Virus record (IMG/VR): IMGVR_UViG_2897375277_000008
Span: 1-37,796 of that record
From: a virus
Lineage: Duplodnaviria; Heunggongvirae; Uroviricota; Caudoviricetes
Length of the DNA stretch: 37,796 nt
Direction: 5' to 3' (one strand)
This document shows, one piece after another, positions 1 through 37,796 of this stretch; position 1 is the first letter of the stretch, and each line of letters opens with the position of its first letter. The notes under the pieces were generated by a model. The model made no database searches and had not been told where the DNA came from. It saw nothing but the letters and a program-made list of their open reading frames with translations. A program made the translations under genes and the position numbers.

Positions 1-1445
1 CTTTCTGGATCCACGTCATTCAGTTTGCACGTCCCGATCAGGCTGTACAGTAGCGCTCCCCGCTCACCACCATGGTCAGAGCCGAAGAACAGGAAGTTTT
101 TACGACCCAGACTGACCGCCCGCAGGGCATTTTCAGCGATGTTGTTGTCGATTTCCACCCAGCCATCGTTCGCATAGTACGTCAGTGCCGGCCACTGGTT
201 AAGTGCGTACGCGAACGCCTTCGCCAACTCTGAGTGTCGCGACAGGGTCTTCATCTTTTCACGCAACCAGCTTTCCAGGGATTTCAACAGCGGTTTCGTT
301 TTTCGCTGACGTTCAGCAAGCCGCTGCTCTGCCGGCATTCCCCTTATATCCGCCTCTATGGCGTACAACTGACCGATCTGCTCCAGGGCTTCTTCCGTCA
401 GTGCTGACGGGATGCGGACGTGCACATCGTGGATCTTTCGGCGGGCATGAGCCCAGCAGGCAGCTTCCGTTATCCCACCATTGCGATACAGCTCGTTGAA
501 CCCGGCGTACGCATCCGCTTGCAGCACACCGCTGAAGCAAGCAAGATGAGTCTGCGGATGGATGCCTTTCCTGTCCGGGCTGTAAGCGAACCACACTGCA
601 GGTGCCAACGCTGACCCGGCATTGCGGTCATCACGAACATACGCCCACAACCGCCCGGTCTTCGTCTTCTTATTACCCGGCAGCAGTACCTGGACCGGGG
701 TATCATCGGCATGGAGTTTGCCGTCAGTCATGACATAGCCATGAAGCGCCTCTTCCAGCGGAGACAGCAGCCGGCAGCATGCATCCACCCAGCCCGACAG
801 CAGTGAACGGCTCAGCTCCACACCTTGCCGGCCGTATATTTCTGACTGGCGATACAGCGGGGTGTGCTCTGCATACTTCGAGGTCAGCACGCGGGCCAGC
901 AGCCCCGGTCCGGCGATACCCCGCTCGATGGGCCGCGAAGGTGCAGGTGCCTGCACGATGGCATCGCACTGAGTACAGGCATGTTTTTCCCGTACCGTCC
1001 GGATAACCCGGAAGGCGCTACGCATCAACTCCAGCTGTTCGGCGGTATCCTCGCCCAGATAGCTCAGTGAACCGCCGCAGTTCGGGCAGCACGGCGCCGC
1101 AGGCAACAGTCGCTTTTCGTCACGGGGTAGTGATTCAGGGAACGGCTTACGGGTGCGGGTCTGACGCAACGGACGCTGTACTGCCGGGTCATACACCCTA
1201 CCAGTCAGCGTATCGCTCTCTTTCTGAAGCCGGTTCAGATCGGCTTCCATTTGTGCGATACGGCGGGAGACTTTTTCGGAACGACTGCCGAAGTTCATCC
1301 GGCGGAGTTTATCCAGCTGCGCCTGCAGATGGTCTATTTCGCGCTCCCGGTTGCTCAGCTTTTCCTGCAGGGCGTGGATCAGCGCTTCCTGTTCGGCCAG
1401 GCGCTGTTTCAGCAGGAAGATGTCGTCAGAAGAGATGTCGTTCAT
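1..1445 (-). CDS. tnpC: IS66-family transposase TnpC, 5' part (481 codons open to window edge)
   Basis: Minus-strand ATG at 1445; my hand translation starts [30 protein letters not shown] and contains CCPNCGG and a DDE-type core. Frame stays open to position 1, which is why it is absent from the ORF track. Confidence 0.8.
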
Positions 1446-1494
1446 AAGCCCGTATTTTACCGGGCTTATTCTGTGACAACCAGGATAAAGAGAT

Positions 1495-1842
1495 TTACAG
1501 CATGGTCAGGGAGGTCAGCAGCCGCTTAGGCTGTCGCCAGTCGATACCTTCCAGCAGCATCGCCAGCTGCGCCTGCGTAAGGAACACTTTGCCATCACGG
1601 GCTGACGGCCAGGCGAAGCGCCCACGCTCCAGCCGTTTGGTCAGGAGGCACAGCCCGTCACCGGTGGACCACAGCAGTTTAACCTGACTGCCGCTGCGGC
1701 CCCGGAAAATGAAAACATGGCCGGACATGGGATCGTCTTTCAGCGCCGTCTGTACTTTCGCAGCCAGGCCGTTGAAGCCATTTCTCATATCGGTGATACC
1801 GGCAACCAGCCAAATTTTGGTCCCGGAAGGTAACGGGATCAT
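1495..1842 (-). CDS. tnpB: IS66 Orf2 (TnpB)
   Basis: 115-aa [33 protein letters not shown]..., recognised as IS66 TnpB; overlaps tnpA by 4 nt. Confidence 0.85.
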
Positions 1843-2240
1843 CGCTTCAGTTCCTGTATCAGCAGAGTCAGGAGCTTTTCGCTGACATTGCCATTGAAGC
1901 GGAGCGTCCCGTGCCGGAACGTTACCTCACAGCTGATACTGAGGGTTTCCGGGTCCTCTGCGAGCGATTCTGGCTGTTCGGCAGCTGCATCGAGAGTCAC
2001 AGGAAGTAGCTGGGGGCTCTCTGAAGAAGGTAATAGCAGCTTTCCCTTGCGCCATTGTTGTCGCCATTTGAACAACAGATTGGCGTTAATGCCATTTTCA
2101 AGAGCAAGTTTTGAGATGGATATCCCGGGTTCACAGGAGGCAGCAACGAGCTGCTGTTTAAATTCGGGAGGATAATTAGGGCAGCCTTTTCGCCTGCCGG
2201 GAGTCACATTTTTCTGCATATCTGACACTTTGGTTCCCAC
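1839..2240 (-). CDS. tnpA: IS66 Orf1 (TnpA)
   Basis: 133-aa ORF MQKNVTPGRRKGCPNYPPEFKQQLVAAS..., recognised as IS66 Orf1; about 70 bp inside the IS end. Confidence 0.85.
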   Translation of the reverse strand: MGTKVSDMQKNVTPGRRKGCPNYPPEFKQQLVAASCEPGISISKLALENGINANLLFKWRQQWRKGKLLLPSSESPQLLPVTLDAAAEQPESLAEDPETLSISCEVTFRHGTLRFNGNVSEKLLTLLIQELKR

Positions 2241-2291
2241 TACTTATTTGGTGGACACCACTTTGTCTAATTCGTCAGATTCTGACCAGAC

Positions 2292-2311
2292 GGTTCAGGC
2301 TGTACGCTTAC
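2292..2311 (-). repeat. IS66 terminal inverted repeat (element end at 2311)
   Basis: Plus strand ggttcaggctgtacgcttac, reverse complement GTAAGCGTACAGCCTGAACC. Confidence 0.7.
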
Positions 2312-2312
2312 T

Positions 2313-2733: not shown

Positions 2734-3312
2734 ATGATGCCATTTGCTCGTTATTTCTGCATTTTCATAAACGTTGGTTTGGGAGAAGGCTCTGCATTAC
2801 CGGTTGGGGTGCCTGTTCCGTGGCCTTCAGCCACTCCGCCAACAGGCTGGCTGAAATGCAATGGTGCGGCTTTTTCTGCTGAAGAATACCCGGAACTGGC
2901 AAAGGCTTACCCGACCAATAAATTGCCTGATTTACGCGGTGAATTTATTCGTGGCTGGGATGATGGACGTGGAGTGGATGCGGGGCGAGCCTTGCTAAGT
3001 CTTCAGAATGACTCTTTTGAAGCTCACAGGCATGAGTCCTTTTTTTACGCGGGTATTTCACGCAATGAAACACCATTAAAAAATCTTCCAAGTTCAGACG
3101 AGATGCTGACTTTAAGTTCCACAACTAATGCCTTGTCCCCGGACAGTATTGATGCCACCAATTCGTTAATTGGTAATGATGATTACAACTGTCTGATTGA
3201 AGGAAATAAAAATAACAAACGAACGGCAACGGGGTTGAGTACCAGTATTGTCGGTGCAGCAGAGACACGCCCACGTAATATTTCATTTAATTACATTGTG
3301 AGGGCTGCATGA
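2734..3312 (+). CDS. Alternative tail-fibre C-terminal cassette (silent in this orientation; no own start)
   Basis: ORF contains PVPWPSATPPTGWLKCNGAAFSAEEYPELAKAYPTNKLPDLRGEFIRGWDDGRG, the classic phage tail-fibre C-terminal motif; real coding starts at the crossover site around 2776. Confidence 0.7.
   Translation: MMPFARYFCIFINVGLGEGSALPVGVPVPWPSATPPTGWLKCNGAAFSAEEYPELAKAYPTNKLPDLRGEFIRGWDDGRGVDAGRALLSLQNDSFEAHRHESFFYAGISRNETPLKNLPSSDEMLTLSSTTNALSPDSIDATNSLIGNDDYNCLIEGNKNNKRTATGLSTSIVGAAETRPRNISFNYIVRAA
2762..2787 (+). other. Inversion crossover site (gix/pix-like), left
   Basis: 26-bp site ttttcataaacgTTggtttgggagaa; right half-site and central TT identical to the reverse complement of the site at 4598..4623. 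Confidence 0.7.
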
Positions 3313-3914
3313 TGTATAACGCCATCTTAAATAATAAATTTATTGCCACAAAGGCAGGAGAGATTACCGTTTATAACTATGACAGTGAGACACGGGAGTA
3401 TATTTCTGCATCAACTGAATATCTTGCTGTGGGTGTCGGTATCCCTGCATATTCCTGTTTAGATGCTCCTGGCACACATAAGGTTGGTTATGCAATCTGC
3501 CGTTCGGCAGATTTAAACTCATGGGAATATGTGCCAGACCATCGCGGTGAAGTTGTCTATAACACCGAAACGGGAGAATCAAAAGAAATCACAGCTCCGG
3601 GTGATTACCCTGAAAATACAACCACTATCGTCCCGTTAACGCCATACGATAAATGGGATGGTGAGAAATGGGTGACAGATACTGAGGCACAGCATAGTGC
3701 CGCAGTAGACGCGGCAGAAGCACAGCGCCAGTCGCTGATTGATGCTGCAATGGCTTCCATCAGTCTGATTCAACTGAAATTACAGGCCGGGCGGAAGCTG
3801 ACGCAGGCAGAAACAACCCGACTTAACGCCGTGCTGGATTACATTGACGCGGTGACGGTAACAGATACCAGCACCACGCCGGATGTCATCTGGCCTGAAC
3901 TGCCGGAGGCGTAG
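3309..3914 (+). CDS. Tail fibre assembly protein (alternative cassette)
   Basis: 201-aa ORF directly after the alternative fibre cassette; C-terminus ...[12 protein letters not shown] is Tfa-like. Confidence 0.7.
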
Positions 3915-4314
3915 GCCATTCAATATCGGGTGCTGTTGAAGTATCAACACGCATCAGCAGCACACGGTATTTCTTCCATTTGGTGAGAGTTGAAGTTTCT
4001 TCATCAGTTGCGATATCAGCATCAACAGCATCCTGACGCCAGGATATTTCACTGTCAGCTTTTTCCCGTAATTGGGATTTTTTAACTTCAGCAATAGCTA
4101 TTAATTCCTTTTTGGTCGGCTGAGGAATATCTATCAGTGCTGGTTTTCCATTCAGTGTTCCAATCTGTTTTCCTGGTAGAATATCCGTAAATAACTTTTT
4201 ATGTTCTTCCTCACTGACTATTACACCATCATCAGGCCACAGACCTGATGCCTCAAATTTTTCTTTCTCCGATATGGGGAAAAAGCCATTTGCTTTAGCG
4301 CTCCATACGTACAT
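3886..4314 (-). CDS. Tail fibre assembly protein (expressed cassette)
   Basis: 142-aa ORF after the tail-fibre gene, C-terminus ...[15 protein letters not shown]; converges on and overlaps the other tfa by 29 bp. Confidence 0.7.
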
Positions 4315-4315
4315 A

Positions 4316-4900
4316 TCAATACCCCACCGCTATAATGTCCACATTAAATCCCCCGGGACCTGCCTGCCAGATGCTGGCCCCTGTTAATGATTTTGTTTGA
4401 TGAACAACCGCCACATTTGCTGGCGATTGTGTTTCAGTTGTTACAGTACCGATATCATTCCAGTTAATTGAGATGGAATAGTTCGTTGTTGTAAACGACC
4501 GGGGGAAAGTTATGTGTCTTACATTGGTGCCGACAGGAAATCCAAGATAAACACGCTGAATTATCATTCCTCCAGGTAACATAACCCAGTTAGCACCTTC
4601 TCCCAAACCAAGGTTTTCGAGAGCTGTTTTCACCGTGCCATCCGATTTGATATCGCCAAACGGATTCTTGCGGCTTAACAGCAGCGCACGAAGCGCGGTA
4701 AGCAACTGGTCGTGCCGCGCCTTCTCCAGGCTGGCACCGGAGGCCTCCACCACGCTGCAGAGTTCTTCCTGCAACATGTCAAAGTAGTCATCATCCAGAT
4801 CGGTGGCAGGCGTGCCTGTCTGGGGGTTACCACGGGTAAAACCGTTCTTACCCGGGCCGAACTTATCCTTCTGCGCGGTTTTCGTGTCTATACGATGCAT
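4316..4900 (-). CDS. Tail fibre protein (constant N-terminus joined to current variable C-terminus)
   Basis: 194-aa ORF between the YmfQ-like gene and tfa; crossover site lies inside it at the LENLGLGEG codons. Confidence 0.65.
4598..4623 (-). other. Inversion crossover site (gix/pix-like), right, inside the tail-fibre gene
   Basis: Plus strand ttctcccaaaccAAggttttcgagag; reverse complement shares TTGGTTTGGGAGAA with the left site; both sites encode the shared GLGEG peptide. Confidence 0.7.
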
Positions 4901-24644: not shown

Positions 24645-25580
24645 ATGCTCTTGGGAGATAATGAACGTTTCATGATCAAATGCCAGGTTACTTTAAAGAA
24701 GTATCCTAATGACGCACCTGACATGCCTTTAGTAAACTGTATTCCTGTTTTAAAAAATCGCTATAACAAAGGAGAAGCTGTTTACGAATTAAACAAAGGA
24801 CGTTCTGTCATAAGATTGCTATCCATAAAAGACGATGAAAATTACCTGAAATTGCTTTTTCAATATATAAATAAAGATGCTTCTGATCCCGCCTTTTCCA
24901 ACATAAAAACTGGTGAAACCAGAATTGAGAAAAAGCAAAATGATGAAGGTATGGGGTACTCTGCTCATGTGCTTATCAAAAAAAGACCGAGCGACTCATC
25001 ATTCCAAGATTGTTATGAGGCAATTTTAGAAGAAGTTCCGGGCATTACCAGAGGTTTATTAGCCCAAGCTTTAACTTATTTCCTGCGAGAAAATAATTTT
25101 TCCTTTATCCGTTCAGGAGGGAAAAAAGAACTTAAGTGCAGACCTATTTTCGACATTGATTTTTTGGCTGCAATAACACTTGAGCAATCTCTATCCACTG
25201 GTTATTTATGTGGACTTACTGCTACTCGTCGCTTTAAAGATAACTCTTTAGATGATGATGGCACAGTAATGGTTGAAGAAGAAACACTAAAGCTATCAAC
25301 AAAAATACGTCGCGGAGAGGGTGCAATTAAGGCGATTAAGTCTGCATATGACAAACTTCGTGGTAGAAAGTATACAATGTTAAGAATTTCTTATAAAGAC
25401 AAAAATAAACGCGTTTCATCAGATCTTGTTTCCATCGGAAAAGAAATGAGCTTACAGGAACTCGCAACAGCACAATTGGCACAACGTGAAAAAGCAGTGT
25501 TGGCATCAACAATTGCCGTTTGCCAAACAGCATTTCACGAAGAACTTCTCGCAAAAATGCAAAACTTTATGTTAAAGTGA
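24645..25580 (+). CDS. Hypothetical 311-aa soluble protein, first gene of the AT-rich insert
   Basis: Long ORF with AAGGAA Shine-Dalgarno; no Walker, HNH or other motif I recognise; codon usage visibly AT-rich; opposite strand to the late operon. Confidence 0.7.
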   Translation: MLLGDNERFMIKCQVTLKKYPNDAPDMPLVNCIPVLKNRYNKGEAVYELNKGRSVIRLLSIKDDENYLKLLFQYINKDASDPAFSNIKTGETRIEKKQNDEGMGYSAHVLIKKRPSDSSFQDCYEAILEEVPGITRGLLAQALTYFLRENNFSFIRSGGKKELKCRPIFDIDFLAAITLEQSLSTGYLCGLTATRRFKDNSLDDDGTVMVEEETLKLSTKIRRGEGAIKAIKSAYDKLRGRKYTMLRISYKDKNKRVSSDLVSIGKEMSLQELATAQLAQREKAVLASTIAVCQTAFHEELLAKMQNFMLK

Positions 25581-25612
25581 AGGCATGGAAAACCTGTCAA
25601 AAGGAGGCATAT

Positions 25613-26182
25613 ATGTATGTTTTATCTAAGGTTTTTACACCTATAGACTACCTACGCATAAAGCATCCTGAGAAGCGATTTTTTGACTGGGTTTTACCCA
25701 TTTTCACTGCTGCAATTATTACTTTATCCATCTATTACTTACCGAAAACCATCTCACTTCTCGGGAAGGATAGTCTTGTGTCTTTAGTAAACGGGATACT
25801 TCAAATACTATCTGGTTTTTACATTGCATCTATGGCTGCAGTTGCAACCTTCAGTAAGGATGGTATGGATGAAGTTATGCATGGCATACCTCCGGTATTA
25901 AAAGGTAAAAAACTTACAAGGCGTAAATTCCTCACTTATCTATTTGGTTATTTAGCGTTTATGAGCATCGCGCTGTATTTCGTTGGAGGAGCACTTCAAC
26001 TAACCAGTGCAAGCATCAAGGAATTACACCTTTCATCATATCCACTAGTGAAATCATTACTTTTGTTTATTTATTTAAGTACCATATGCAACATTATATA
26101 CACAACGGCATTAGGTATGTATTTTATGATAGACAAAATGCATGATGAAAAATCGAAACTTATAATTAAAGATAAAGAATGA
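25613..26182 (+). CDS. Hypothetical 189-aa membrane protein with four predicted TM helices
   Basis: Start set at ATG 25613 (AAGGAGG 5 nt upstream; track ORF begins 25520). Four hydrophobic segments of about 20 to 28 aa and a Lys-rich tail. Confidence 0.65.
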   Translation: MYVLSKVFTPIDYLRIKHPEKRFFDWVLPIFTAAIITLSIYYLPKTISLLGKDSLVSLVNGILQILSGFYIASMAAVATFSKDGMDEVMHGIPPVLKGKKLTRRKFLTYLFGYLAFMSIALYFVGGALQLTSASIKELHLSSYPLVKSLLLFIYLSTICNIIYTTALGMYFMIDKMHDEKSKLIIKDKE

Positions 26183-26206
26183 GGCTTACGCCTCATTCTT
26201 TTTAGA
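26175..26206 (+). terminator. Intrinsic terminator between the convergent insert and Q gene
   Basis: Perfect 11-bp stem aagaatgaggc/gcctcattctt, loop ttac, then T-run; overlaps the insert gene stop and the Q stop codon. Confidence 0.7.
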
Positions 26207-26564
26207 ACTCAATCAAACAAATACATCCTTCAACAAACCCCAAGGCAGTCTGCAATTTTTTCCTAACTGTGCCATCTGAACATCTTCTCTTCTTGGCAAT
26301 AGTGCGTAATGAGATACCAATGACAAAGTGAGCTATGATTAGCTCATATTCCTCTGGTTTATACTTTCTCAACCGAGCCACACAACTGTCTATCATAATG
26401 CCTTCGTCATCATCACACTGAACCCGGGACTTTTTGCCATGAGGTAAAAGCCCCTTGAAGCCTGCAGCTATCGGCTGCCAGTCCACGCCACTGTTATCTG
26501 CTGCAGCCCATGCTCCCCAGCGGTCCAATACTTCATACATATCACGCATCAACTTTCTCCACAA
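26202..26564 (-). CDS. Late antiterminator Q (QuuD-like small Q family)
   Basis: 120-aa ORF with ...VLDRWGAWAAADN...IAAGFKGL...; matches my recollection of DLP12 QuuD; sits upstream of the lysis genes. Confidence 0.7.
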   Translation of the reverse strand: MWRKLMRDMYEVLDRWGAWAAADNSGVDWQPIAAGFKGLLPHGKKSRVQCDDDEGIMIDSCVARLRKYKPEEYELIIAHFVIGISLRTIAKKRRCSDGTVRKKLQTALGFVEGCICLIEF

Positions 26565-26566
26565 AA

Positions 26567-27562
26567 TCAGGCCAGCACGCCAATTGCCAGCGCACGATCG
26601 ATAAAACGAAATATCAGCTCCAGCTGGGAGCCATACTTCTCTTCAAATGCCACGGTATCCGCATGCAGCTCGTCGTGATGCTTTCTGCACAAAGGCAACA
26701 CAAAGAGGTCATGCGCTTTTGTTCCCATTCCACCCTGACCGTGACCTATCAGGTGGTGGGGATCATCAGCAGGCTTTCCACAACATGCACACGGCTGTGT
26801 CTTAACCCAGCGCGTGTACTTTTCATTAACCCAGCGGCGACGTTTTGGGCGTAACATAAAAGACCCCGGCGACTCCGGATCCACTTTCAGCGCCAGCACC
26901 TTTTTCGCTTTATCCTGGATGATGCTGGTGGCAGGAACCGAAGGCACAAGGTCACTTTCCCGGGTAACAGACGGCACAACAGGCTTCGGTAATCTCAGTG
27001 CCTTACGGGCTGCACTTTCCGGTAAGGCATCCGCCAGGTCATTACGAACCAGCCACCAGCACAGTTCCGGCATTGTCACAACGTGACTATCATCAAAACC
27101 GAGATCACGGCGCACAACAGATAACACCCAGCGGGCACAGTTATCCGTTGCCATTGATTCCAGCCGTTCCGTGAACTGATCACGCAACTGGTTATCGCAG
27201 TGCCAACACAGACGGATTACGCCCGGCGCGCGTCGCATTGTGGTCATGTTCTCGCTGTGCCAGTCGGAATGAGGCCACTGACAGCCCTTTTCACGAAGTA
27301 ACCAGCTTTCAAGACATTCCACGCCACCAGCACGACGGATCACTGCCTCATTGCGGAACACGGCCCGAACGGCAGGATCATCCGCCAGCGGTTGTGATGC
27401 CGCTGGAACGGCACCACTGGCGAAAGATGAATAACGCTCCGGCTCAGGCTCCAGCAGGACACGCCCCTGCATAAACAGGGGCATCAGCTCTGAACCAGGC
27501 CTGAACAATACGATCCCCATACGCGGGGCAATTTCAGGGGTCAGTAGTGCTCTCACGGTCAC
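26567..27562 (-). CDS. Nin-region protein, DUF968-like, with C-terminal Cys/His cluster
   Basis: 331-aa ORF; C-terminus CACCGKPADDPHHLIGHGQ...CRKHHDELH suggests a metal-binding or HNH-like module. Confidence 0.5.
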   Translation of the reverse strand: MTVRALLTPEIAPRMGIVLFRPGSELMPLFMQGRVLLEPEPERYSSFASGAVPAASQPLADDPAVRAVFRNEAVIRRAGGVECLESWLLREKGCQWPHSDWHSENMTTMRRAPGVIRLCWHCDNQLRDQFTERLESMATDNCARWVLSVVRRDLGFDDSHVVTMPELCWWLVRNDLADALPESAARKALRLPKPVVPSVTRESDLVPSVPATSIIQDKAKKVLALKVDPESPGSFMLRPKRRRWVNEKYTRWVKTQPCACCGKPADDPHHLIGHGQGGMGTKAHDLFVLPLCRKHHDELHADTVAFEEKYGSQLELIFRFIDRALAIGVLA

Positions 27563-27563
27563 C

Positions 27564-28394
27564 TCAATGAACGGTATCGAGCAGCTTTAACAGCTCAGGG
27601 AATCGGGATTCGAAGAAATGCGGCTGCGTCTCGCGCGGATTTGCAGGACTGGTGATGTTCTTGCCGAACATGCAGCCTTTCGCCGTTAGCGACCAGAATT
27701 TTTTGATGTTGTTAATCGCGGTACGGCTGTATCGTTCGCGTTGTTCAACGATCCCCAGCTTCACCATCTGGTGATATGCCTGATTAGCCGTCAGGCGGAT
27801 ACCATACTGCTTCAGCAGTGCACTCAGCGACAGCGTGGGGCGACTTGAGCCATCGTGTGCATCAGCAGGAGCATCAACGGCATAGCGCGGTGCCAGATTC
27901 GGTAAGCCAACAGCCTCCTGGAGTTTCTGACAGGCCCCAAGCACAGATGAGTTAGACAGGTTTAACTCCCGACGCATAAAGTCCAGCAGAATCACTCCAG
28001 CCTGCATCTTGTCAGCAGCCTGTCCGGATAATTTTTCCGGTGCGCTGGTTACCATGTCGAAAGTACGGATCACCTTCAGATGGAATGACGGGCTGATCCA
28101 CATTGCATAGGCATACACCAGTTCCTTACAGACATACGTCCCCTGATTATTTCCGCCGCGAATAACGTTAACTGGCTCTATATTGACCGAGTTGCAAATC
28201 TGCAACTCGCTTATTAAACGTTCAGTTTGCTCATTGCGGAGCCAGAATGCAGGCTTATGCTTATCCAGAGAACCGGCAGCCCTGTGCAGATCGTTCAGGC
28301 TGTAACGCCCATAAGCATCACGACGAACTTCAATACCATCAATGACCATCAGATTATTCATACTTCGTTTCTCCTCTTGATCAGGCGGCTGCAC
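27564..28394 (-). CDS. KilA-N domain protein (antirepressor-like)
   Basis: 276-aa ORF; N-terminal region ...MVIDGIEVRRDAYGRYSLNDLHRAAG... is KilA-N-like. Confidence 0.55.
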   Translation of the reverse strand: MQPPDQEEKRSMNNLMVIDGIEVRRDAYGRYSLNDLHRAAGSLDKHKPAFWLRNEQTERLISELQICNSVNIEPVNVIRGGNNQGTYVCKELVYAYAMWISPSFHLKVIRTFDMVTSAPEKLSGQAADKMQAGVILLDFMRRELNLSNSSVLGACQKLQEAVGLPNLAPRYAVDAPADAHDGSSRPTLSLSALLKQYGIRLTANQAYHQMVKLGIVEQRERYSRTAINNIKKFWSLTAKGCMFGKNITSPANPRETQPHFFESRFPELLKLLDTVH

Positions 28395-28770
28395 CCGCCG
28401 TTTTCTCGTACTTACTGATAGTGATCTCGACCTTCCCTTCCGGGATAACCGGTCCCCACTCCACCAGCATTCTTTTCACCTGGCTGTCGTCTTCCCACAC
28501 ACCCGCGTGGGTCAGGGCGTCAAACAGTGCCTTGTTATAGTTGTCCAGATCGCGGATCCGGTTATCCGGAGGAAACAACACAATCTCCACTGAAGCAGGT
28601 GCCGACGTTGGTTTCGGCAGACGACGTAACTGCTCAACTATTGCTGCGCACGCCGCGCTCTGGAATTTTCGCCCCGCCGCACTTATCAGGCTCTTACCAG
28701 CAAATGCCCCTTTGTTGGGGTGTCGCCAGTAGGTGTTCACGCTGGGCGGAAAAGGCAGGATCAGCTTCAT
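28381..28770 (-). CDS. rusA: RusA-type Holliday junction resolvase
   Basis: 129-aa ORF MKLILPFPPSVNTYWR... with acidic catalytic residues (…DLDNYNKALFDALT…). Confidence 0.85.
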   Translation of the reverse strand: MKLILPFPPSVNTYWRHPNKGAFAGKSLISAAGRKFQSAACAAIVEQLRRLPKPTSAPASVEIVLFPPDNRIRDLDNYNKALFDALTHAGVWEDDSQVKRMLVEWGPVIPEGKVEITISKYEKTAGAAA

Positions 28771-29093
28771 ACTTTCAGGGCCCTCTCATGTAACCAGTAG
28801 GTTGCACGCAGCCTGGCGTTTTCCTCACAAGCAAGCAGTGCGCGGATAATCCCGACCGCCTCGCTGTCGTCATCCTTCACCGCGGTATGAAGCGTTATCC
28901 CCCGGGCCACGCCACGCTTTATCGTGATGACGCCTTTTTTCTCCAGTGCGCGAAGATGCTCCACCGCTGCATTCACTGAACGGTATCCCAGCATGGTTGC
29001 CACCTCCTGATTGGTTGGCGGAAAGCCACGCTCTTTCTGGTAAGAAATCAGCATATCCAGCACCTGCTGCTGGCATTGAGTTAACGTCGTCAT
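28767..29093 (-). CDS. LexA-N-like winged-helix DNA-binding protein
   Basis: 108-aa ORF ...LTQCQQQVLDMLISYQKERGFPPTNQEVATMLGYRSVNAAVEHLRALEKKGVI...; no peptidase domain. Confidence 0.5.
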   Translation of the reverse strand: MTTLTQCQQQVLDMLISYQKERGFPPTNQEVATMLGYRSVNAAVEHLRALEKKGVITIKRGVARGITLHTAVKDDDSEAVGIIRALLACEENARLRATYWLHERALKV

Positions 29094-29776
29094 GCCGCCA
29101 TCTCCCTGACCAGTTTTTCTGCCTGCTGGCGAACCTGCGCCAGAAAGGCCTCACCACATGCCTCAAGTTCATCGCGCCCGATATAGCTGATTGCCGATCC
29201 CTTCCAGGTCTTATCGAAAACAGCAATAGCACCAGCGAAGAACGCTCCTGTCGGCACCTGCTTCTCATCCTTCGGGATAAACCAGACAGGCAGTTCAAAA
29301 CCAATACGCCCGCGAATAAAAGCAATATGGTCTGCATCTTCCGGCCACCACACTTCGCTGGTGGCAGCTTTGATCAGGAAAACATAGCGCCCGCCCTTAT
29401 CACGCATGGCACTGGCATGTTTCATGATGTAACGCATGCCGGTGATGTATTGCCCCTCATGCTGACTGGCGCGGCTGTATGGGGGATTACCAAAGGCAGC
29501 ACCTTTAAGCTCCGCAAGACGTTCTGACCAGTCATGCGCCAGCGCGTTGTCTTCCGCCGTGTAATACGCAGCACATTTGGTGTTATCACCGTCAGTGAAC
29601 AGATCCAGAACAAACGGGCCAAACAGGGTGTTAATTCCCCAGAAAATGTTGTCCGGCGTGCGCCACTGATCGCCCACTTCCTTCAGTTCATGGGCTGGTT
29701 TGTTCCGCAGTTCCACCAGCGCCTGGCAATATTTATTACTCATTAAGCCCCCACGTAATTCCCTGACAGATACCAC
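29090..29776 (-). CDS. Orphan DNA N6-adenine methyltransferase (phage Dam-like)
   Basis: 228-aa ORF containing the motif FGNPPYS (NPPY catalytic motif); no adjacent restriction gene. Confidence 0.7.
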   Translation of the reverse strand: MVSVRELRGGLMSNKYCQALVELRNKPAHELKEVGDQWRTPDNIFWGINTLFGPFVLDLFTDGDNTKCAAYYTAEDNALAHDWSERLAELKGAAFGNPPYSRASQHEGQYITGMRYIMKHASAMRDKGGRYVFLIKAATSEVWWPEDADHIAFIRGRIGFELPVWFIPKDEKQVPTGAFFAGAIAVFDKTWKGSAISYIGRDELEACGEAFLAQVRQQAEKLVREMAA

Positions 29777-30237
29777 TCTTCACCCGATGCAGCGCGCTTG
29801 CTGCTTTTCCGTAAGCACCGCTCACGACGCGCCAGAAAATTGTTTCGTTCTGGCTGGGAGTGGCTTTCACGGAATGCCGCCATCCACACCGTTGCAGCAC
29901 GACGGTATAAGCCCCTGGACTCCAGTTCTTCAGCCTGGCGGGTCAGGCACAAAATCTCCCGCGGGTCGTTAGTGCCGACATAGAAATTGCGCACAGGTCT
30001 GGTTTCACGAACTGGTTGCGGTTCCGCCTCCTGCGCTCTCTCAGTCAGGCGCGGGAAATGTCTGCGTGTATCCCCTTCACAACGGTGAGCCACACGACCA
30101 CTCTGACGTAACTTGCTTGCTGACTGCAGAACGCGCTGCCGTGAGTAACCTGCAAAAGCATCCGCAATGTCTCCGGAAGTACAGCCCGGATGGGCTTCAA
30201 TGAATTTCTGAACGTCATTCAAAAGACTCATGCTCAC
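29743..30237 (-). CDS. Hypothetical basic protein (possible regulator)
   Basis: 164-aa Arg-rich ORF downstream of the replication initiator. Confidence 0.4.
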   Translation of the reverse strand: MSMSLLNDVQKFIEAHPGCTSGDIADAFAGYSRQRVLQSASKLRQSGRVAHRCEGDTRRHFPRLTERAQEAEPQPVRETRPVRNFYVGTNDPREILCLTRQAEELESRGLYRRAATVWMAAFRESHSQPERNNFLARRERCLRKSSKRAASGEEWYLSGNYVGA

Positions 30238-31175
30238 CCCCTGAATCCTGCCGGGATCTGGCTGTAGTCCACATTGTCGTAACTGGCTTTGAAGTACGGG
30301 TCTTCGCGTTTTTCTGTGTACGTGCTGACGGACGGCGATAAGCGCAGGGAAAGCTCATCCCATTTTTCCCGCAGCTTCGACGGGCTGAGCACGTTACGGC
30401 ACCAGAACGGATCGCGGCTGACGCGGCTGTACATCTCGCAGATTTGTTTGTGAGTACGACCATCCTGCACACACATCAGGCGTATTTCGTTTGCCCATGC
30501 TGTCCAGTTCGGTTCTTTGGGACGTACCACTTCGCCGTCACATTCGGCGGCCTGCTCGTACAGAGCGATGATTTTTTTCCAGAGCCACTGTGCGCAGGTC
30601 AAATCATCCTGCGTCCCCCACTGGCGCTTTTTAGGGCTGAATACAACCGCATCAGGATGGCGAGTTAAAAAATCCTGTTCAGCCGTCTGCGTGTCCGGTT
30701 GCGAAGCGTCCGGACGAGAAGGTTTTTTATCTGACGGATCATGTTTTGATTTTACTGACGGATCCCCGCCAGATTCTGACGGGTGAAAACCCGCTTTTTT
30801 GCCAGATTTCGACGCATCAAATTTTGACGGGTCAGATTTTGATGCGTCAGATTTTGACGGGTCAGAATCTGACAGTTGAGAAAATGCCGCTGCCTGAAGC
30901 TTCGCAACGTTAAGCTGATAAACATTCGACGCATTGCGGTTACCCTGGCGACGCGCCTTACGCGTTAACCAGCCTTCTGCTTCCAGCCGTGCGATAGCCG
31001 TTCTGACGGTACTCATCCCCGCGCCAATCTGACGGGCAATGGTTTCAATTGATGGCCAGCACACACCTTCGTCATTACTGAAATCAGCCAGGCGGGCCAT
31101 AATTGCCACGCTGGATAACTTCATGCCTGATGCAGCGCAACCATCCCATACATAGCCGGTTAATTTAGTGCTCAT
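30234..31175 (-). CDS. Replication initiation protein (O-like, N-terminal winged helix, iterons inside gene)
   Basis: 313-aa ORF; N-terminal HTH-like region; central repeated peptide DPSKSDASKSDPSKFDASKSG encoded by the DNA iterons. Confidence 0.7.
   Translation of the reverse strand: MSTKLTGYVWDGCAASGMKLSSVAIMARLADFSNDEGVCWPSIETIARQIGAGMSTVRTAIARLEAEGWLTRKARRQGNRNASNVYQLNVAKLQAAAFSQLSDSDPSKSDASKSDPSKFDASKSGKKAGFHPSESGGDPSVKSKHDPSDKKPSRPDASQPDTQTAEQDFLTRHPDAVVFSPKKRQWGTQDDLTCAQWLWKKIIALYEQAAECDGEVVRPKEPNWTAWANEIRLMCVQDGRTHKQICEMYSRVSRDPFWCRNVLSPSKLREKWDELSLRLSPSVSTYTEKREDPYFKASYDNVDYSQIPAGFRG
30722..30881 (-). repeat. Origin iterons (about 8 tandem ~15-bp repeats)
   Basis: Repeats of attttgacgggtcag-like units, e.g. 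30822..30836, 30837..30851, 30852..30866, with degenerate copies upstream. Confidence 0.65.
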
Positions 31176-35924: not shown

Positions 35925-37796
35925 TTAAACCACGATTCCTAAATGGCATGGTTGCTCACCTTCAAGAGAGGCTCTCATTAAGGTCAGGAATTGGGATAAA
36001 TTATTTCTAAAATCAGAACCACTATCTTCCGCCATTCCTGGAGCTAACGAACTTACTAATAAAGCAGGTGTGATAGGTCTTGTTCCGTAAATACTATATT
36101 TCTCATGATGGAAATGACGAGTCTCGCAAGATTCACTTGGATTTACAATCATCAGCCCAGAAGACAAACTTTTTCCAGTATTTTTTTCATGTATACCATG
36201 AAGGTATTTCATAGTGAGTTCGGGGAGGTAATGTGTAAACGCTTTTTTACTGGTAGTATACTTTGCATCTAGGATTAATTGCCTTTGTTCACCCGTAGGC
36301 GTTGAAATGCAAACTATCATGTCTGGTGATCGATTAGCATTAGGACCTTGCTGCCCTCTAGGCTTCAATTTACCTTTCACGGTGTCTAGAGTCCACCCTT
36401 CGGAGTTAATTAGGGAAGCCCCAAAAGAGCTTGCATGATCATGAGTCCAAATTTTCATCTCATAGATAAGCTGTACAGTAAAACCTCCCCAGTCATACTC
36501 AAAATTATTCCGTTCTATTACAGGGCCATTCACTAGCTCAAACTTCATGCCCAATAACCGTACGTTGTCAAAGTGATACTTAATTAAAAATAATAGGTAG
36601 TATTCAAAAAGTTTTGGGATACTTTGTATCGAAAATAGCTCTTCCTGTACGCTCCAATCAGGTGCGCCGAATCTATGCCAAGCAATTATTTTATGAAAAA
36701 CCTTCTGATAATGAAGGTTGTATCTAGCTTTTCTTGTGAATTGCGGAGTGCCAATGATAATATTAGTTACAGGAACCCGCTCATCAAAAGTTCGTTTCAA
36801 ACGCTGTAGATTAATAATCAATTCTTTACATCGTGAAACTTTATTTTTATTTACAACCTTTGCAAACTTACTTAGCTGTGCAAAAAATGAAATATACCCG
36901 GATATGCTCGACTGTTCACGAATTCTGGAAGAAGGATACTCTTCAAGCCGACTCAAGATCTCCGATGCAGCACGCATAAGGGATACTATAAAGCCATGGA
37001 CAACTTGATTTTCATAAATATTCAAATCCTCTTTTAGATGATTTTCTAATATTCGTTCCGATGAATAATATGTGCCATCTAGTTCCAATATTGCGCGGGT
37101 CTGATCATTAACTGGATAAAGGTTGTCAGAGTTTTCTGAAATCCAAGCTAAAGTGGTGTCATCGATAACAGAGTTTTCAGATACTACGACAACTTTAGTC
37201 ACTGGTGTAAGTTTTGCGATTGGCCTGGAATAGATATTTGGAATCTCGGTCATTAACAATAAAACATTTCGTTCGAGTTGTTCAATCAAAAAGCTAACCG
37301 ATCTTTCTCCTTCTTTGAATCCTGCATTTATACGAGTTACTCTAAAAAATGCTGCTAGAGCATCATTATCATGACACGCTAAGAAATCGAGCATTTTTTC
37401 TGCCCGTTCAGCATTCAATTTTTTGGCAAATACTTCAACCGGAGAATATTGTTCAATAATAACTCTTTCGCCAACTCCATCGATTTTCGTTACTATCGAT
37501 AGCTCTGCCATACCATAATAGTTATGAAAAAAGCATTCGTATGTTGATCGATATATAGATTTTGGTTTCCATTCGTAAATCCATAGGCCATCGTATTCTT
37601 TGCTAGAAGTTATTCCTATTTCATTTTCATGAAGACATAAAAAAACATCATCCAACGGAACAGATGCTTCCAGCCTAAACTCTAGAGCTTCGTCTTCCAG
37701 AAAATAAATCTGATTAGAGGACTGAAGACCAAAGGGAGTCAACCCTATCTCTAGACCACTTCTCCTGCCGTTTATTATCTTCGCAGTAAACCTCAT
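35925..37796 (-). CDS. McrC-like PD-(D/E)xK nuclease family protein (start codon at window edge)
   Basis: 623-aa AT-rich ORF; C-terminal ...SPDMIVCISTPTGEQRQLILDAKYT... parallels the McrC catalytic region (…DITIRSSEKILIVDAKYY…) as I recall it. Confidence 0.6.
   Translation of the reverse strand: MRFTAKIINGRRSGLEIGLTPFGLQSSNQIYFLEDEALEFRLEASVPLDDVFLCLHENEIGITSSKEYDGLWIYEWKPKSIYRSTYECFFHNYYGMAELSIVTKIDGVGERVIIEQYSPVEVFAKKLNAERAEKMLDFLACHDNDALAAFFRVTRINAGFKEGERSVSFLIEQLERNVLLLMTEIPNIYSRPIAKLTPVTKVVVVSENSVIDDTTLAWISENSDNLYPVNDQTRAILELDGTYYSSERILENHLKEDLNIYENQVVHGFIVSLMRAASEILSRLEEYPSSRIREQSSISGYISFFAQLSKFAKVVNKNKVSRCKELIINLQRLKRTFDERVPVTNIIIGTPQFTRKARYNLHYQKVFHKIIAWHRFGAPDWSVQEELFSIQSIPKLFEYYLLFLIKYHFDNVRLLGMKFELVNGPVIERNNFEYDWGGFTVQLIYEMKIWTHDHASSFGASLINSEGWTLDTVKGKLKPRGQQGPNANRSPDMIVCISTPTGEQRQLILDAKYTTSKKAFTHYLPELTMKYLHGIHEKNTGKSLSSGLMIVNPSESCETRHFHHEKYSIYGTRPITPALLVSSLAPGMAEDSGSDFRNNLSQFLTLMRASLEGEQPCHLGIVV

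Follow-up and report, generated by a model that had tools for sequence, protein, structure and literature searches.

[quoted passage not shown]

The window analysed here, a stretch of 37,796 nucleotides of phage DNA taken at its full length, contains a minus-strand open reading frame for which the original prediction proposed an orphan adenine methyltransferase of the nin region, protecting the phage genome from host restriction and relevant in view of a McrC-like gene at the prophage end. The locus raises the question of whether this gene encodes a functional DNA methyltransferase, which sequence such an enzyme would mark, and what the phage would gain from the mark.

The open reading frame at 29090..29776 is present on the minus strand in the ORF list of the window and comprises 228 aa when counted from its GTG start, as predicted, but the likeliest product is a shorter protein of 217 aa that starts at the ATG at 29743. 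In E. coli H22, the 100% identical gene is annotated by PGAP from the equivalent of this ATG (product WP_001373735.1, 217 aa), and homologues from other genera begin at the same equivalent position. The ATG is preceded by GGGGG-CTTA; the GTG sits within yfdN, with no spacer behind its purine run. The first 11 codons of the maximal ORF are probably untranslated and outside the protein because they are located inside yfdN. The features of the gene are as follows.

29090..29743, minus strand: coding sequence of the phage N6-adenine DNA methyltransferase, stop codon included, 217 aa (H22 PGAP coordinates, PF05869, TIGR01712, PADLOC)
29744..29776, minus strand: 11 extra codons of the maximal ORF from the GTG start, inside yfdN (annotated start and homologue starts at ATG 29743)
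29477..29488, minus strand: codons of catalytic motif IV, N86-P87-P88-Y89 (AAT CCC CCA TAC), invariant or nearly so in three alignments

Comparison of the protein to curated family models gave matches far above the curated cut-offs for Pfam PF05869 ‘Dam’ (153.7 bits vs. a cut-off of 28.1, E = 4.8e-45) and for NCBIfam TIGR01712 ‘phage N-6-adenine-methyltransferase’ (253.6 bits vs. a cut-off of 97.05, E = 5.8e-76), the latter an equivalog model that is matched over positions 1-165 of its 165, in agreement with the predicted identity as an adenine methyltransferase. PHROG 111 ‘DNA methyltransferase’ was also matched (E = 1.5e-89), and the protein covers the PADLOC MTase_II model PDLC03263 end to end (517 bits). 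The NPPY motif, on which the original prediction was based, corresponds to residues 86-89 of the 217-aa protein and does align with the catalytic motif of the family: NPPYS matches the T1, HP1 and VT2 Dam enzymes column for column, and in an alignment of 66 sequences that are 21-98% identical, D25, W27, D47, N54, W72, N86, P87, Y89, S90, I143, R146 and F149 are invariant and P88 is conserved in at least 90% of the sequences. Judged by the family matches and these alignments, NPPY is no chance motif in this protein.

The fold prediction depended strongly on the depth of the underlying alignment. An initial AlphaFold model, built from a shallow, bimodal alignment (40 sequences, either >76% or <29% identical), had a pLDDT of 53, whereas adding mid-range relatives, retrieved with a profile built from Chi-like, Proteus, Vibrio and Providencia phage homologues, raised this to 93 (AlphaFold2 model, pLDDT 93.3, pTM 0.89). 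The best solved Foldseek neighbours of this model are N6-adenine methyltransferases, namely PCIF1/CAPAM (E = 2e-4), M.TaqI, TrmM, the methylase domains of DrdV and LlaGI, BrxX and HsdM. Among viral proteins, phage N6-adenine methyltransferases come out on top (E down to 1.6e-11). At the sequence level, neither the protein nor the 40-sequence profile retrieved anything meaningful from the PDB, and no structure of the family is detectable in this way. The model shows a class I (Rossmann-like) SAM-methyltransferase fold as found in amino-methyltransferases, and the alignment, model and structural neighbours together suggest the motif order X-I-(II)-IV, as in gamma-class enzymes. There is no separate target-recognition domain. 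From its sequence, we assign the product to the phage ‘Dam’ family: a DNA N6-adenine methyltransferase that is small, built of a single domain and dependent on SAM.

An e14-like prophage at icd, which looks complete, carries the gene in the nin-equivalent part of its early-right operon (cro to Q). The gene order is O-like gene, yfdN, methyltransferase, LexA-like, RusA, KilA-N, DUF968 and Q, with the following landmarks.

30234..31175, minus strand: O-like replication initiation gene, bounding the nin-equivalent region upstream (PHROG 391, E = 7.9e-136)
29743..30237, minus strand: yfdN, a PerC-family regulator and the upstream gene, whose TAA stop shares one base with the methyltransferase ATG (TAATG)
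28767..29093, minus strand: downstream gene for a 108-aa protein with a LexA DNA-binding domain only, whose ATG overlaps the methyltransferase TGA (ATGA)
28381..28770, minus strand: RusA Holliday-junction resolvase, next in the same tightly packed operon (profile matches, H22 annotation)
26202..26549, minus strand: antiterminator Q-family gene, bounding the nin-equivalent region downstream (H22 annotation)
26201..26174: strong terminator-like hairpin after the Q-family gene (terminator scan)

The predicted placement in the nin region is therefore correct by position, between the O-like replication gene and Q and with overlapping gene ends; among the named nin-type genes, RusA alone has a counterpart here. 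Nin regions typically show overlaps of the ATGA type (PMC8022706), and the methyltransferase is probably translationally coupled to its neighbours. A scan of the minus strand for promoters detected nothing convincing immediately upstream of the gene, which would fit, if weakly, read-through from the early-right promoter. The description of the gene as an orphan also holds: no restriction endonuclease adjoins it, the neighbours being the PerC-like YfdN, the LexA DNA-binding-domain protein, RusA, KilA-N, DUF968 and Q, and none of the neighbouring proteins that were tested matched a PADLOC defence model.

A neighbour-joining tree of the family shows a deep split, with the window protein in a clade that is sister to the GATC-specific T1, HP1 and VT2 enzymes. 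Identity of the window protein to these three is 24-29%, compared to 31-36% among the three themselves. T1 Dam (M.EcoT1Dam), HP1 Dam and M.EcoVT2Dam match PF05869 like the window protein (218 bits for VT2 orf32), share with it the D-x-W-x-TP, LD, N and NPPYS motifs, and are likewise small orphan enzymes without a target-recognition domain; the VT2-Sakai homologue also lies in a nin region, between ninB and ninE. We infer that orf32 is M.EcoVT2Dam because it is the sole methyltransferase annotated in the VT2-Sakai record. In contrast to all three, the window protein carries two clade-specific insertions, the first being an insertion of 7-11 residues after NPPYS and the second belonging to a longer loop without the NNK motif of those enzymes, and it has a long C-terminal helix. 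The two clade-specific segments map to the following positions.

29441..29473, minus strand: insertion 1, residues 91-101, RASQHEGQYIT, predicted beta-hairpin (alignment insertion table)
29216..29275, minus strand: loop and strand, residues 157-176, PKDEKQVPTGAFFAGAIAVF, replacing the shorter NNK loop of the GATC clade (alignment columns)

Insertion 1 directly follows motif IV, forms strands 93-95 and 98-101 in the AlphaFold model, and is absent from T1, HP1 and VT2. Both the hairpin insertion after NPPYS and the remodelled loop in place of NNK are common to the clade, which includes the methyltransferases of Chi-like (Chivirus) Salmonella phages and of Proteus, Providencia and Vibrio phages (PHROG 111 / PHROG 33262; 38-70% identical to the window protein). 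These relatives are borne by virulent phages, and some of them carry a C5-cytosine methyltransferase or PAPS-reductase domain in the same polypeptide. Several stand-alone copies in Chi-like phages are annotated ‘PAPS reductase’, which appears to be a misannotation. Given the sister-clade position, the two insertions and the missing NNK loop, GATC specificity cannot be assumed for the window protein; it is experimental for VT2 and T1 (and M.Btr190III; PMC6602927, PMC4996451), and for the virulent-phage relatives specificity is a matter of prediction (PMC9409062).

The gene itself is already known, being named by the NCBI annotation pipeline and represented in curated models of Pfam, NCBIfam, PHROG and PADLOC. 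At ≥95% nucleotide identity it was found in 2,631 of 5,426 complete E. coli genomes, 1,725 of them with at least 80% coverage, and 48 sequenced phages carry it, including cdtI, Stx2c and Stx2k phages. YfdM of E. coli K-12 (b2356, cryptic prophage CPS-53) is identical to the window protein at 88 of residues 1-89 and likewise has yfdN upstream, but it is a 91-aa fragment that ends just past NPPY, in a different prophage from the e14-like element at icd, so that the window gene supplies the intact form of the K-12 fragment. This truncation, the coverage below 80% in 906 of the 2,631 matching genomes (about one third), and the lack of activity reports would be compatible with an inactive relic. 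We consider a relic highly improbable, however: the window copy is full length (217 aa) and identical to a widespread RefSeq protein, it retains every family-invariant residue and is modelled with a confident fold, it resides in a seemingly complete prophage, and near-identical genes occur in the genomes of sequenced, isolated phages.

Even less probable, in our estimate, is that the methyltransferase supplies the modification function of a restriction-modification or other defence system with a nearby nuclease, for which the DUF968 (HNH-like) protein, RusA and a McrBC-like DUF2357 module come into consideration. The DUF968 protein (26567..27562) has a match to HNHc_6 that is marginal (26.9 bits vs. 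a cut-off of 26.6) and none in PADLOC, and RusA is a junction resolvase; both were rejected as the cognate restriction enzyme. The gene previously described as McrC-like (35925..37796, minus strand) encodes a DUF2357 protein (37.4 bits) whose PDDEXK_7 signal is weak and under the cut-off (E = 1.4e-3), and its neighbour, of 848 aa in H22, has AAA and AAA_5 matches that are both sub-threshold; no PADLOC model matched either protein. It is plausible but unproven that the two form a ‘McrBC-like’ module. Although this weak PD-(D/E)XK signal at the prophage end could be taken to favour a nuclease partner, the DUF2357 gene was rejected as well, as it lies 6 kb from the methyltransferase gene in a separate transcription unit beyond int, and other phages carry the methyltransferase without any of these partners (alone in Chi-like phages, fused to a C5-methylase in a Providencia phage). 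Moreover, canonical McrBC recognises methylated cytosine, not m6A. The proposed relevance of the McrC-like gene to the methyltransferase is likewise not supported: with its weak PD-(D/E)XK and sub-threshold AAA matches, the module is carried by the same prophage and is therefore no host barrier for the phage to evade.

With regard to the target, we regard GATC as the best single guess, if still a doubtful one, followed by another defined motif and then by relaxed or non-specific recognition as the least probable of the three; that the sister clade as a whole (enterobacterial prophages and the Chi-like, Proteus, Providencia and Vibrio phages) has another motif or relaxed specificity rather than GATC can be proposed only tentatively. 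Single-stranded DNA or RNA is at best a very improbable preferred substrate, to which the model points solely in that the nearest solved fold is that of the RNA cap enzyme PCIF1. The window contains 140 GATC sites (observed/expected 0.73), a value that is mid-range among palindromic 4-mers and uninformative on specificity. In the literature, we found experimental specificities only for the clade of VT2, T1 and M.Btr190III and none for the window protein, yfdM or the enzymes of Chi-like phages.

Two further readings of the role follow from these targets, each of which we consider less likely than not to be correct. The enzyme could be a GATC-specific, Dam-like one whose main job is to keep fast-replicating phage DNA fully Dam-methylated rather than to counter restriction; uses of such methylation could include the regulation of phage promoters, the avoidance of MutH nicks at un- or hemimethylated GATC, and packaging signals. 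We regard this as possible but rather unlikely. The Pfam and NCBIfam families are the same, the members that we found characterised methylate GATC (PMC6602927, PMC4996451), and host Dam is reported to leave lambdoid virion DNA undermethylated, ‘possibly because replication outstrips modification’ (PMC8022706), but the protein belongs to the sister clade with its different putative recognition loops, we found no test of its GATC activity in the literature, and no GATC-dependent feature was identified within the window. Somewhat less likely still is a relaxed or non-specific adenine methyltransferase that provides blanket protection against many m6A-sensitive systems, like the unrelated M.EcoGII or Hia5. 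This would accord with the very small, single-domain protein that lacks a target-recognition domain, with the ‘significant off-target activity’ of the family member M.Btr190III (PMC4996451), with the frequent promiscuity and silence in lysogens of prophage methyltransferases (PMC4659465, PMC5778455), and with the occurrence of relatives fused to a C5-cytosine methyltransferase, an arrangement shared with multi-specific phage enzymes. GATC specificity is nonetheless retained by other small enzymes of the family, and the strong conservation of the clade-specific loops suggests defined contacts.

The reading that we consider likely is that of an orphan phage-family N6-adenine methyltransferase of the early-right operon that is made after induction and marks the phage DNA. 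We found no experiment in the literature on this protein or on any member of its clade, and its activity, target and timing of expression are therefore all inferred. The enzyme would be silent in the lysogen, as reported for prophage methyltransferases of other families (PMC4659465, PMC5778455), and would be expressed after induction, alongside the replication and recombination genes. It would then flip out adenines in its target and methylate them at N6 via the NPPY pocket, acting on replicating phage DNA before packaging, such that the progeny DNA would be fully m6A-marked whatever the methylation capacity of the host. The likely benefit would be resistance to m6A-sensitive restriction in the next host; with GATC as the target, the enzyme would also ensure complete Dam-type marking of DNA whose replication outpaces the host Dam. 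Protection from restriction is what is usually assumed of phage orphan methyltransferases. In a Dam+ host, a GATC enzyme would seem superfluous; the family members that we found characterised are GATC enzymes in hosts that are already Dam+, and their benefit is not settled (PMC6602927, PMC4996451), the function of phage Dam being described as ‘still not well understood’ (PMC7556043).

This is an ordinary, well-known prophage gene that matters little as a discovery. If, however, the clade is not GATC-specific, one third to one half of complete E. coli genomes would carry a silent methyltransferase that marks phage DNA only in lytic growth. GATC specificity should not be transferred from T1, HP1 and VT2 to the sister clade, and the target motif would aid both the reading of methylomes of induced lysogens and the prediction of the restriction systems that the phage escapes.

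Comparison with other adenine methyltransferases places the protein apart from the better-known enzymes of E. coli and its phages. The best solved structural neighbour, the cap-specific mRNA m6Am methyltransferase PCIF1/CAPAM (PDB 6irw; E = 2e-4, probability 1.0), is 13% identical to the window protein with a TM-score of 0.47, the likeness being confined to the catalytic core. PCIF1 carries an NPPF motif and, unlike the window protein, is a eukaryotic RNA enzyme with extra domains. A Pfam search of the protein at E-values up to 0.01 returned PF05869 alone, with no match to PF02086 or PF01555; M.EcoGI and M.EcoGII, as well as M.EcoMIV and M.EcoMV of ST131 prophages, were rejected as its identity, as these are PF02086 or beta-class enzymes of ~349 aa (PMC4659465, PMC5778455). 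Like the window protein, E. coli Dam and T4 Dam (alpha class, PF02086) and M.EcoGI and M.EcoGII are orphan m6A DNA methyltransferases, and the genes of the latter two likewise come from prophages and are not expressed in lysogens (PMC5778455, PMC4659465). All of them differ from the window protein in family and motif order, M.EcoGI and M.EcoGII being non-specific beta-class enzymes of 349 aa (PMC5778455) in which the catalytic motif precedes the SAM-binding motif.

The product of the minus-strand ORF 29090..29776 matched Pfam PF05869 'Dam' with 153.7 bits (cut-off 28.1), the NCBIfam equivalog TIGR01712 'phage N-6-adenine-methyltransferase' with 253.6 bits (cut-off 97.05) over the whole model, PHROG 111 'DNA methyltransferase' and, end to end, a type II methyltransferase model of PADLOC (517 bits, positions 1-217 of 217), in agreement with its original designation as an N6-adenine methyltransferase carrying NPPY. 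Alignment of the protein with T1 Dam, HP1 Dam and the only annotated methyltransferase of phage VT2-Sakai showed NPPYS to be invariant, along with the N-terminal motif D-x-W-x-TP and an LD pair; across 66 sequences (21-98% identity), the invariant residues were D25, W27, D47, N54, W72, N86, P87, Y89, S90, I143, R146 and F149. The NPPY residues therefore align with the catalytic motif of the family, so that the original prediction withstands the refutation it had itself proposed, and NPPY is more than a chance motif here. The features discussed here, besides the methyltransferase ORF, are:

26202..26549, minus strand, Q antiterminator
28381..28770, minus strand, RusA
28767..29093, minus strand, LexA DNA-binding-domain protein of 108 aa (PF01726, E=3e-19), downstream of the methyltransferase
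29477..29488, minus strand, NPPY motif, residues 86-89 of the methyltransferase (codons AAT CCC CCA TAC)
29743..30237, minus strand, PerC-family gene yfdN, upstream of the methyltransferase
30234..31175, minus strand, O-like replication gene, in the same gene order
35925..37796, minus strand, DUF2357 protein of 623 aa with a weak, sub-threshold PDDEXK_7 / PD-(D/E)XK match

Starting at a GTG, the earliest start codon available, the ORF would encode the 228 aa initially proposed. The ORF is real, and its counterpart in E. coli H22 (carrier of a near-identical prophage) is 100% identical across all 687 bases, but use of the GTG is unlikely, because PGAP starts the H22 gene at an ATG (window position 29743) to give the 217-aa WP_001373735.1, 'phage N-6-adenine-methyltransferase', because this ATG shares one base with the TAA stop of yfdN in a TAATG junction and has GGGGG four bases 5' of it, because the GTG falls within yfdN, and because homologues from Cronobacter, Enterobacter and Salmonella start at the ATG-equivalent position. 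At the 3' end of the methyltransferase gene, the TGA stop and the ATG of the LexA-like gene overlap in an ATGA junction. At the yfdN junction (29740..29780), many gene calls in the databases merge YfdN and the methyltransferase into a single protein, 376-382 aa long (P0004-P0011, P0145 and others). The reading frame of YfdN in P0011 passes into that of the methyltransferase shortly before the ATG ('...GNFVGGLMSNKY'). Such fusions come either from a frameshift variant that recurs or from an artefact of sequencing or gene calling.

No solved structure was detectable by sequence or profile search. A first AlphaFold2 model from a shallow alignment had a pLDDT of 53; after addition of mid-range relatives to the alignment, the model reached a pLDDT of 93.3 and a pTM of 0.89. 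The top Foldseek match in the PDB was the cap-specific adenosine N6-methyltransferase PCIF1/CAPAM (E=2e-4, TM-score 0.47), next in rank were lmo1582, M.TaqI, TrmM and KsgA, and after those came the DrdV and LlaGI methylase domains, BrxX and the EcoR124I methylase; these structural neighbours are amino-methyltransferases with gamma-like motif order. Among predicted viral structures, the best matches were phage DNA N6-adenine methyltransferases (E down to 1.6e-11). Taken with the alignment to the T1, HP1 and VT2-Sakai enzymes, the model suggests that the TP helix corresponds to motif X, that VLDLFTDGDN would form strand 1 and a degenerate SAM-binding loop, that E64 may be the ribose-binding acid, and that AAFG-NPPY probably comprises strand 4 and motif IV.

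From position 2312 onward, the window matches the H22 prophage at 99.8-99.9% identity, except for one inverted tail-fibre segment. Because the H22 prophage is bounded by a partial icd-like (isocitrate dehydrogenase) fragment on one side and by xisE, intE, two further genes and an intact icd on the other, the window prophage is e14-like and located at icd; its tail is contractile. The minus-strand gene order is croE-like ymfT, ymfL, O-like, yfdN, methyltransferase, LexA-like, RusA, KilA-N, DUF968 and Q, followed by lysis and structural genes. Lying between the O-like gene and Q, with overlapping gene ends of the kind described as a nin-region hallmark (PMC8022706), the methyltransferase stretch is the positional equivalent of the lambda nin region, and in VT2-Sakai a family member sits literally between ninB and ninE. 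No restriction endonuclease was present among the neighbouring genes. Apart from its start codon, the original prediction described the ORF correctly, and it was also right to place an orphan adenine methyltransferase in the nin-equivalent region. A scan revealed no strong promoter-like site upstream of the gene on its own strand, and a strong terminator-like hairpin follows Q. The methyltransferase would be a delayed-early gene that stays silent in the lysogen and is expressed once the prophage has been induced; prophage methyltransferases of other kinds are reported to behave in this way (PMC4659465, PMC5778455).

Several other features of the prophage were observed. The LexA-like protein (28767..29093, minus strand) comprises the LexA DNA-binding domain alone, without the S24 peptidase domain, and could be an uncleavable LexA mimic; its gene is translationally coupled (ATGA) to the methyltransferase, and the two are kept together in many E. 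coli prophages. The DUF968 protein (26567..27562, minus strand, E=1.2e-80), common in nin regions, has a marginal HNHc_6 nuclease match (26.9 bits, cut-off 26.6). Between Q and the holin, at the site that stx occupies in Stx phages, two plus-strand genes (24645..25580, and 25520..26182 with an H22 start at 25613) match components A (E=3.5e-17) and B (E=2.7e-39) of PDC-M53, a candidate defence system in PADLOC; neither has a Pfam domain, and both are annotated as hypothetical in H22. The inverted segment (2769..4616) holds tail-fibre and tail-fibre-assembly genes and, in H22, adjoins a recombinase (invertase) gene remnant, which fits an invertible host-range segment of the Pin/Gin type. The left end (1..2312) is unlike H22, with IS66-family orf1 and orf2 (HTH_Tnp_1, TnpB_IS66; 1495..2240, minus strand) in place of the H22 DUF262 gene, presumably at the mcrA position of K-12 e14.

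The methyltransferase gene was already annotated and is very common: of 5426 complete E. coli genomes, 2631 have it at ≥95% nucleotide identity, 1725 of them with nearly the full length, and 48 sequenced phages carry it, among them cdtI, Stx2c and Stx2k phages. E. coli K-12 yfdM, beside yfdN in the cryptic prophage CPS-53, is a 91-aa fragment (88/89 identical) that stops right after NPPY. After clustering at 50%, the number of representative clusters matched was 97 at E ≤1e-30 and 1353 at E ≤1e-3. Salmonella phage ST-101 gp46 (L006:2504-3190) and other Chi-like phages have stand-alone 228-aa proteins, 46% identical over 94% of the methyltransferase length and annotated 'phosphoadenosine phosphosulfate reductase'. 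That name probably derives from PHROG 33262, a 495-position profile that matches the methyltransferase over positions 283-492 only; genuine fusions with a PAPS-reductase domain exist, and for the stand-alone copies the annotation looks wrong. Providencia phage PSTRCR_117lys (L009:1424-3148) carries a 68% identical domain at the C-terminus of a C5-cytosine methyltransferase, one of several double methylases of 574-688 aa (also P0337, P0339, P0344), and relatives from Cronobacter, Citrobacter and Enterobacter have C-terminal extensions of 70-110 residues without a recognised domain.

That some relatives are joined to a C5-cytosine methyltransferase or PAPS-reductase domain fits a function in modifying DNA. 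The conventional hypothesis, an anti-restriction role in which the enzyme would shield progeny DNA from m6A-sensitive restriction, is plausible. If the enzyme is GATC-specific, it may instead complete Dam-type methylation where replication outpaces host Dam; undermethylated lambdoid virion DNA has been reported (PMC8022706). The original prediction had further linked the gene to the McrC-like gene at the prophage end. In H22, the upstream neighbour of the DUF2357 gene (L010:2200-4746, minus strand) encodes 848 aa with sub-threshold AAA and AAA_5 matches only; neither protein matched a PADLOC model, and it is a fair guess that the pair may form a McrBC-like two-gene module. The pair lies within the prophage, between intE and icd, and is therefore prophage cargo and not a barrier raised by the host. 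The base that canonical McrBC recognises is modified cytosine and not m6A. We found nothing connecting the module with the methyltransferase, and this link is unsupported.

M.EcoT1Dam is a GATC enzyme, as is M.Btr190III, with off-target activity too (both PMC4996451); M.EcoVT2Dam is given as a GATC enzyme in a passage of PMC6602927 citing Radlinska and Bujnicki 2001, and an entry in the reference list of PMC7556043 has HP1 Dam cloned as a Dam enzyme. The window protein is 24-29% identical to the T1, HP1 and VT2 enzymes, which are 31-36% identical among themselves, and in a neighbour-joining tree the family falls into two deeply separated clades, the second holding the window protein with its prophage relatives from Salmonella, Cronobacter and Citrobacter and with enzymes of Vibrio, Providencia, Proteus and Chi-like phages. 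In literature searches, no experimentally determined specificity emerged for second-clade enzymes, for which PMC9409062 offers prediction only, and GATC frequency in the prophage is unremarkable. We estimate that GATC has nearly an even chance of being the target, that another motif is possible at a distinctly lower probability, and that relaxed or non-specific methylation is somewhat less probable again. The T1, HP1 and VT2 clade has a conserved NNK loop, whereas all members of the second clade have a 7-11-residue insertion directly after NPPYS (a predicted hairpin, residues 93-101) and a longer loop at 157-176 that lacks the NNK of the GATC enzymes.
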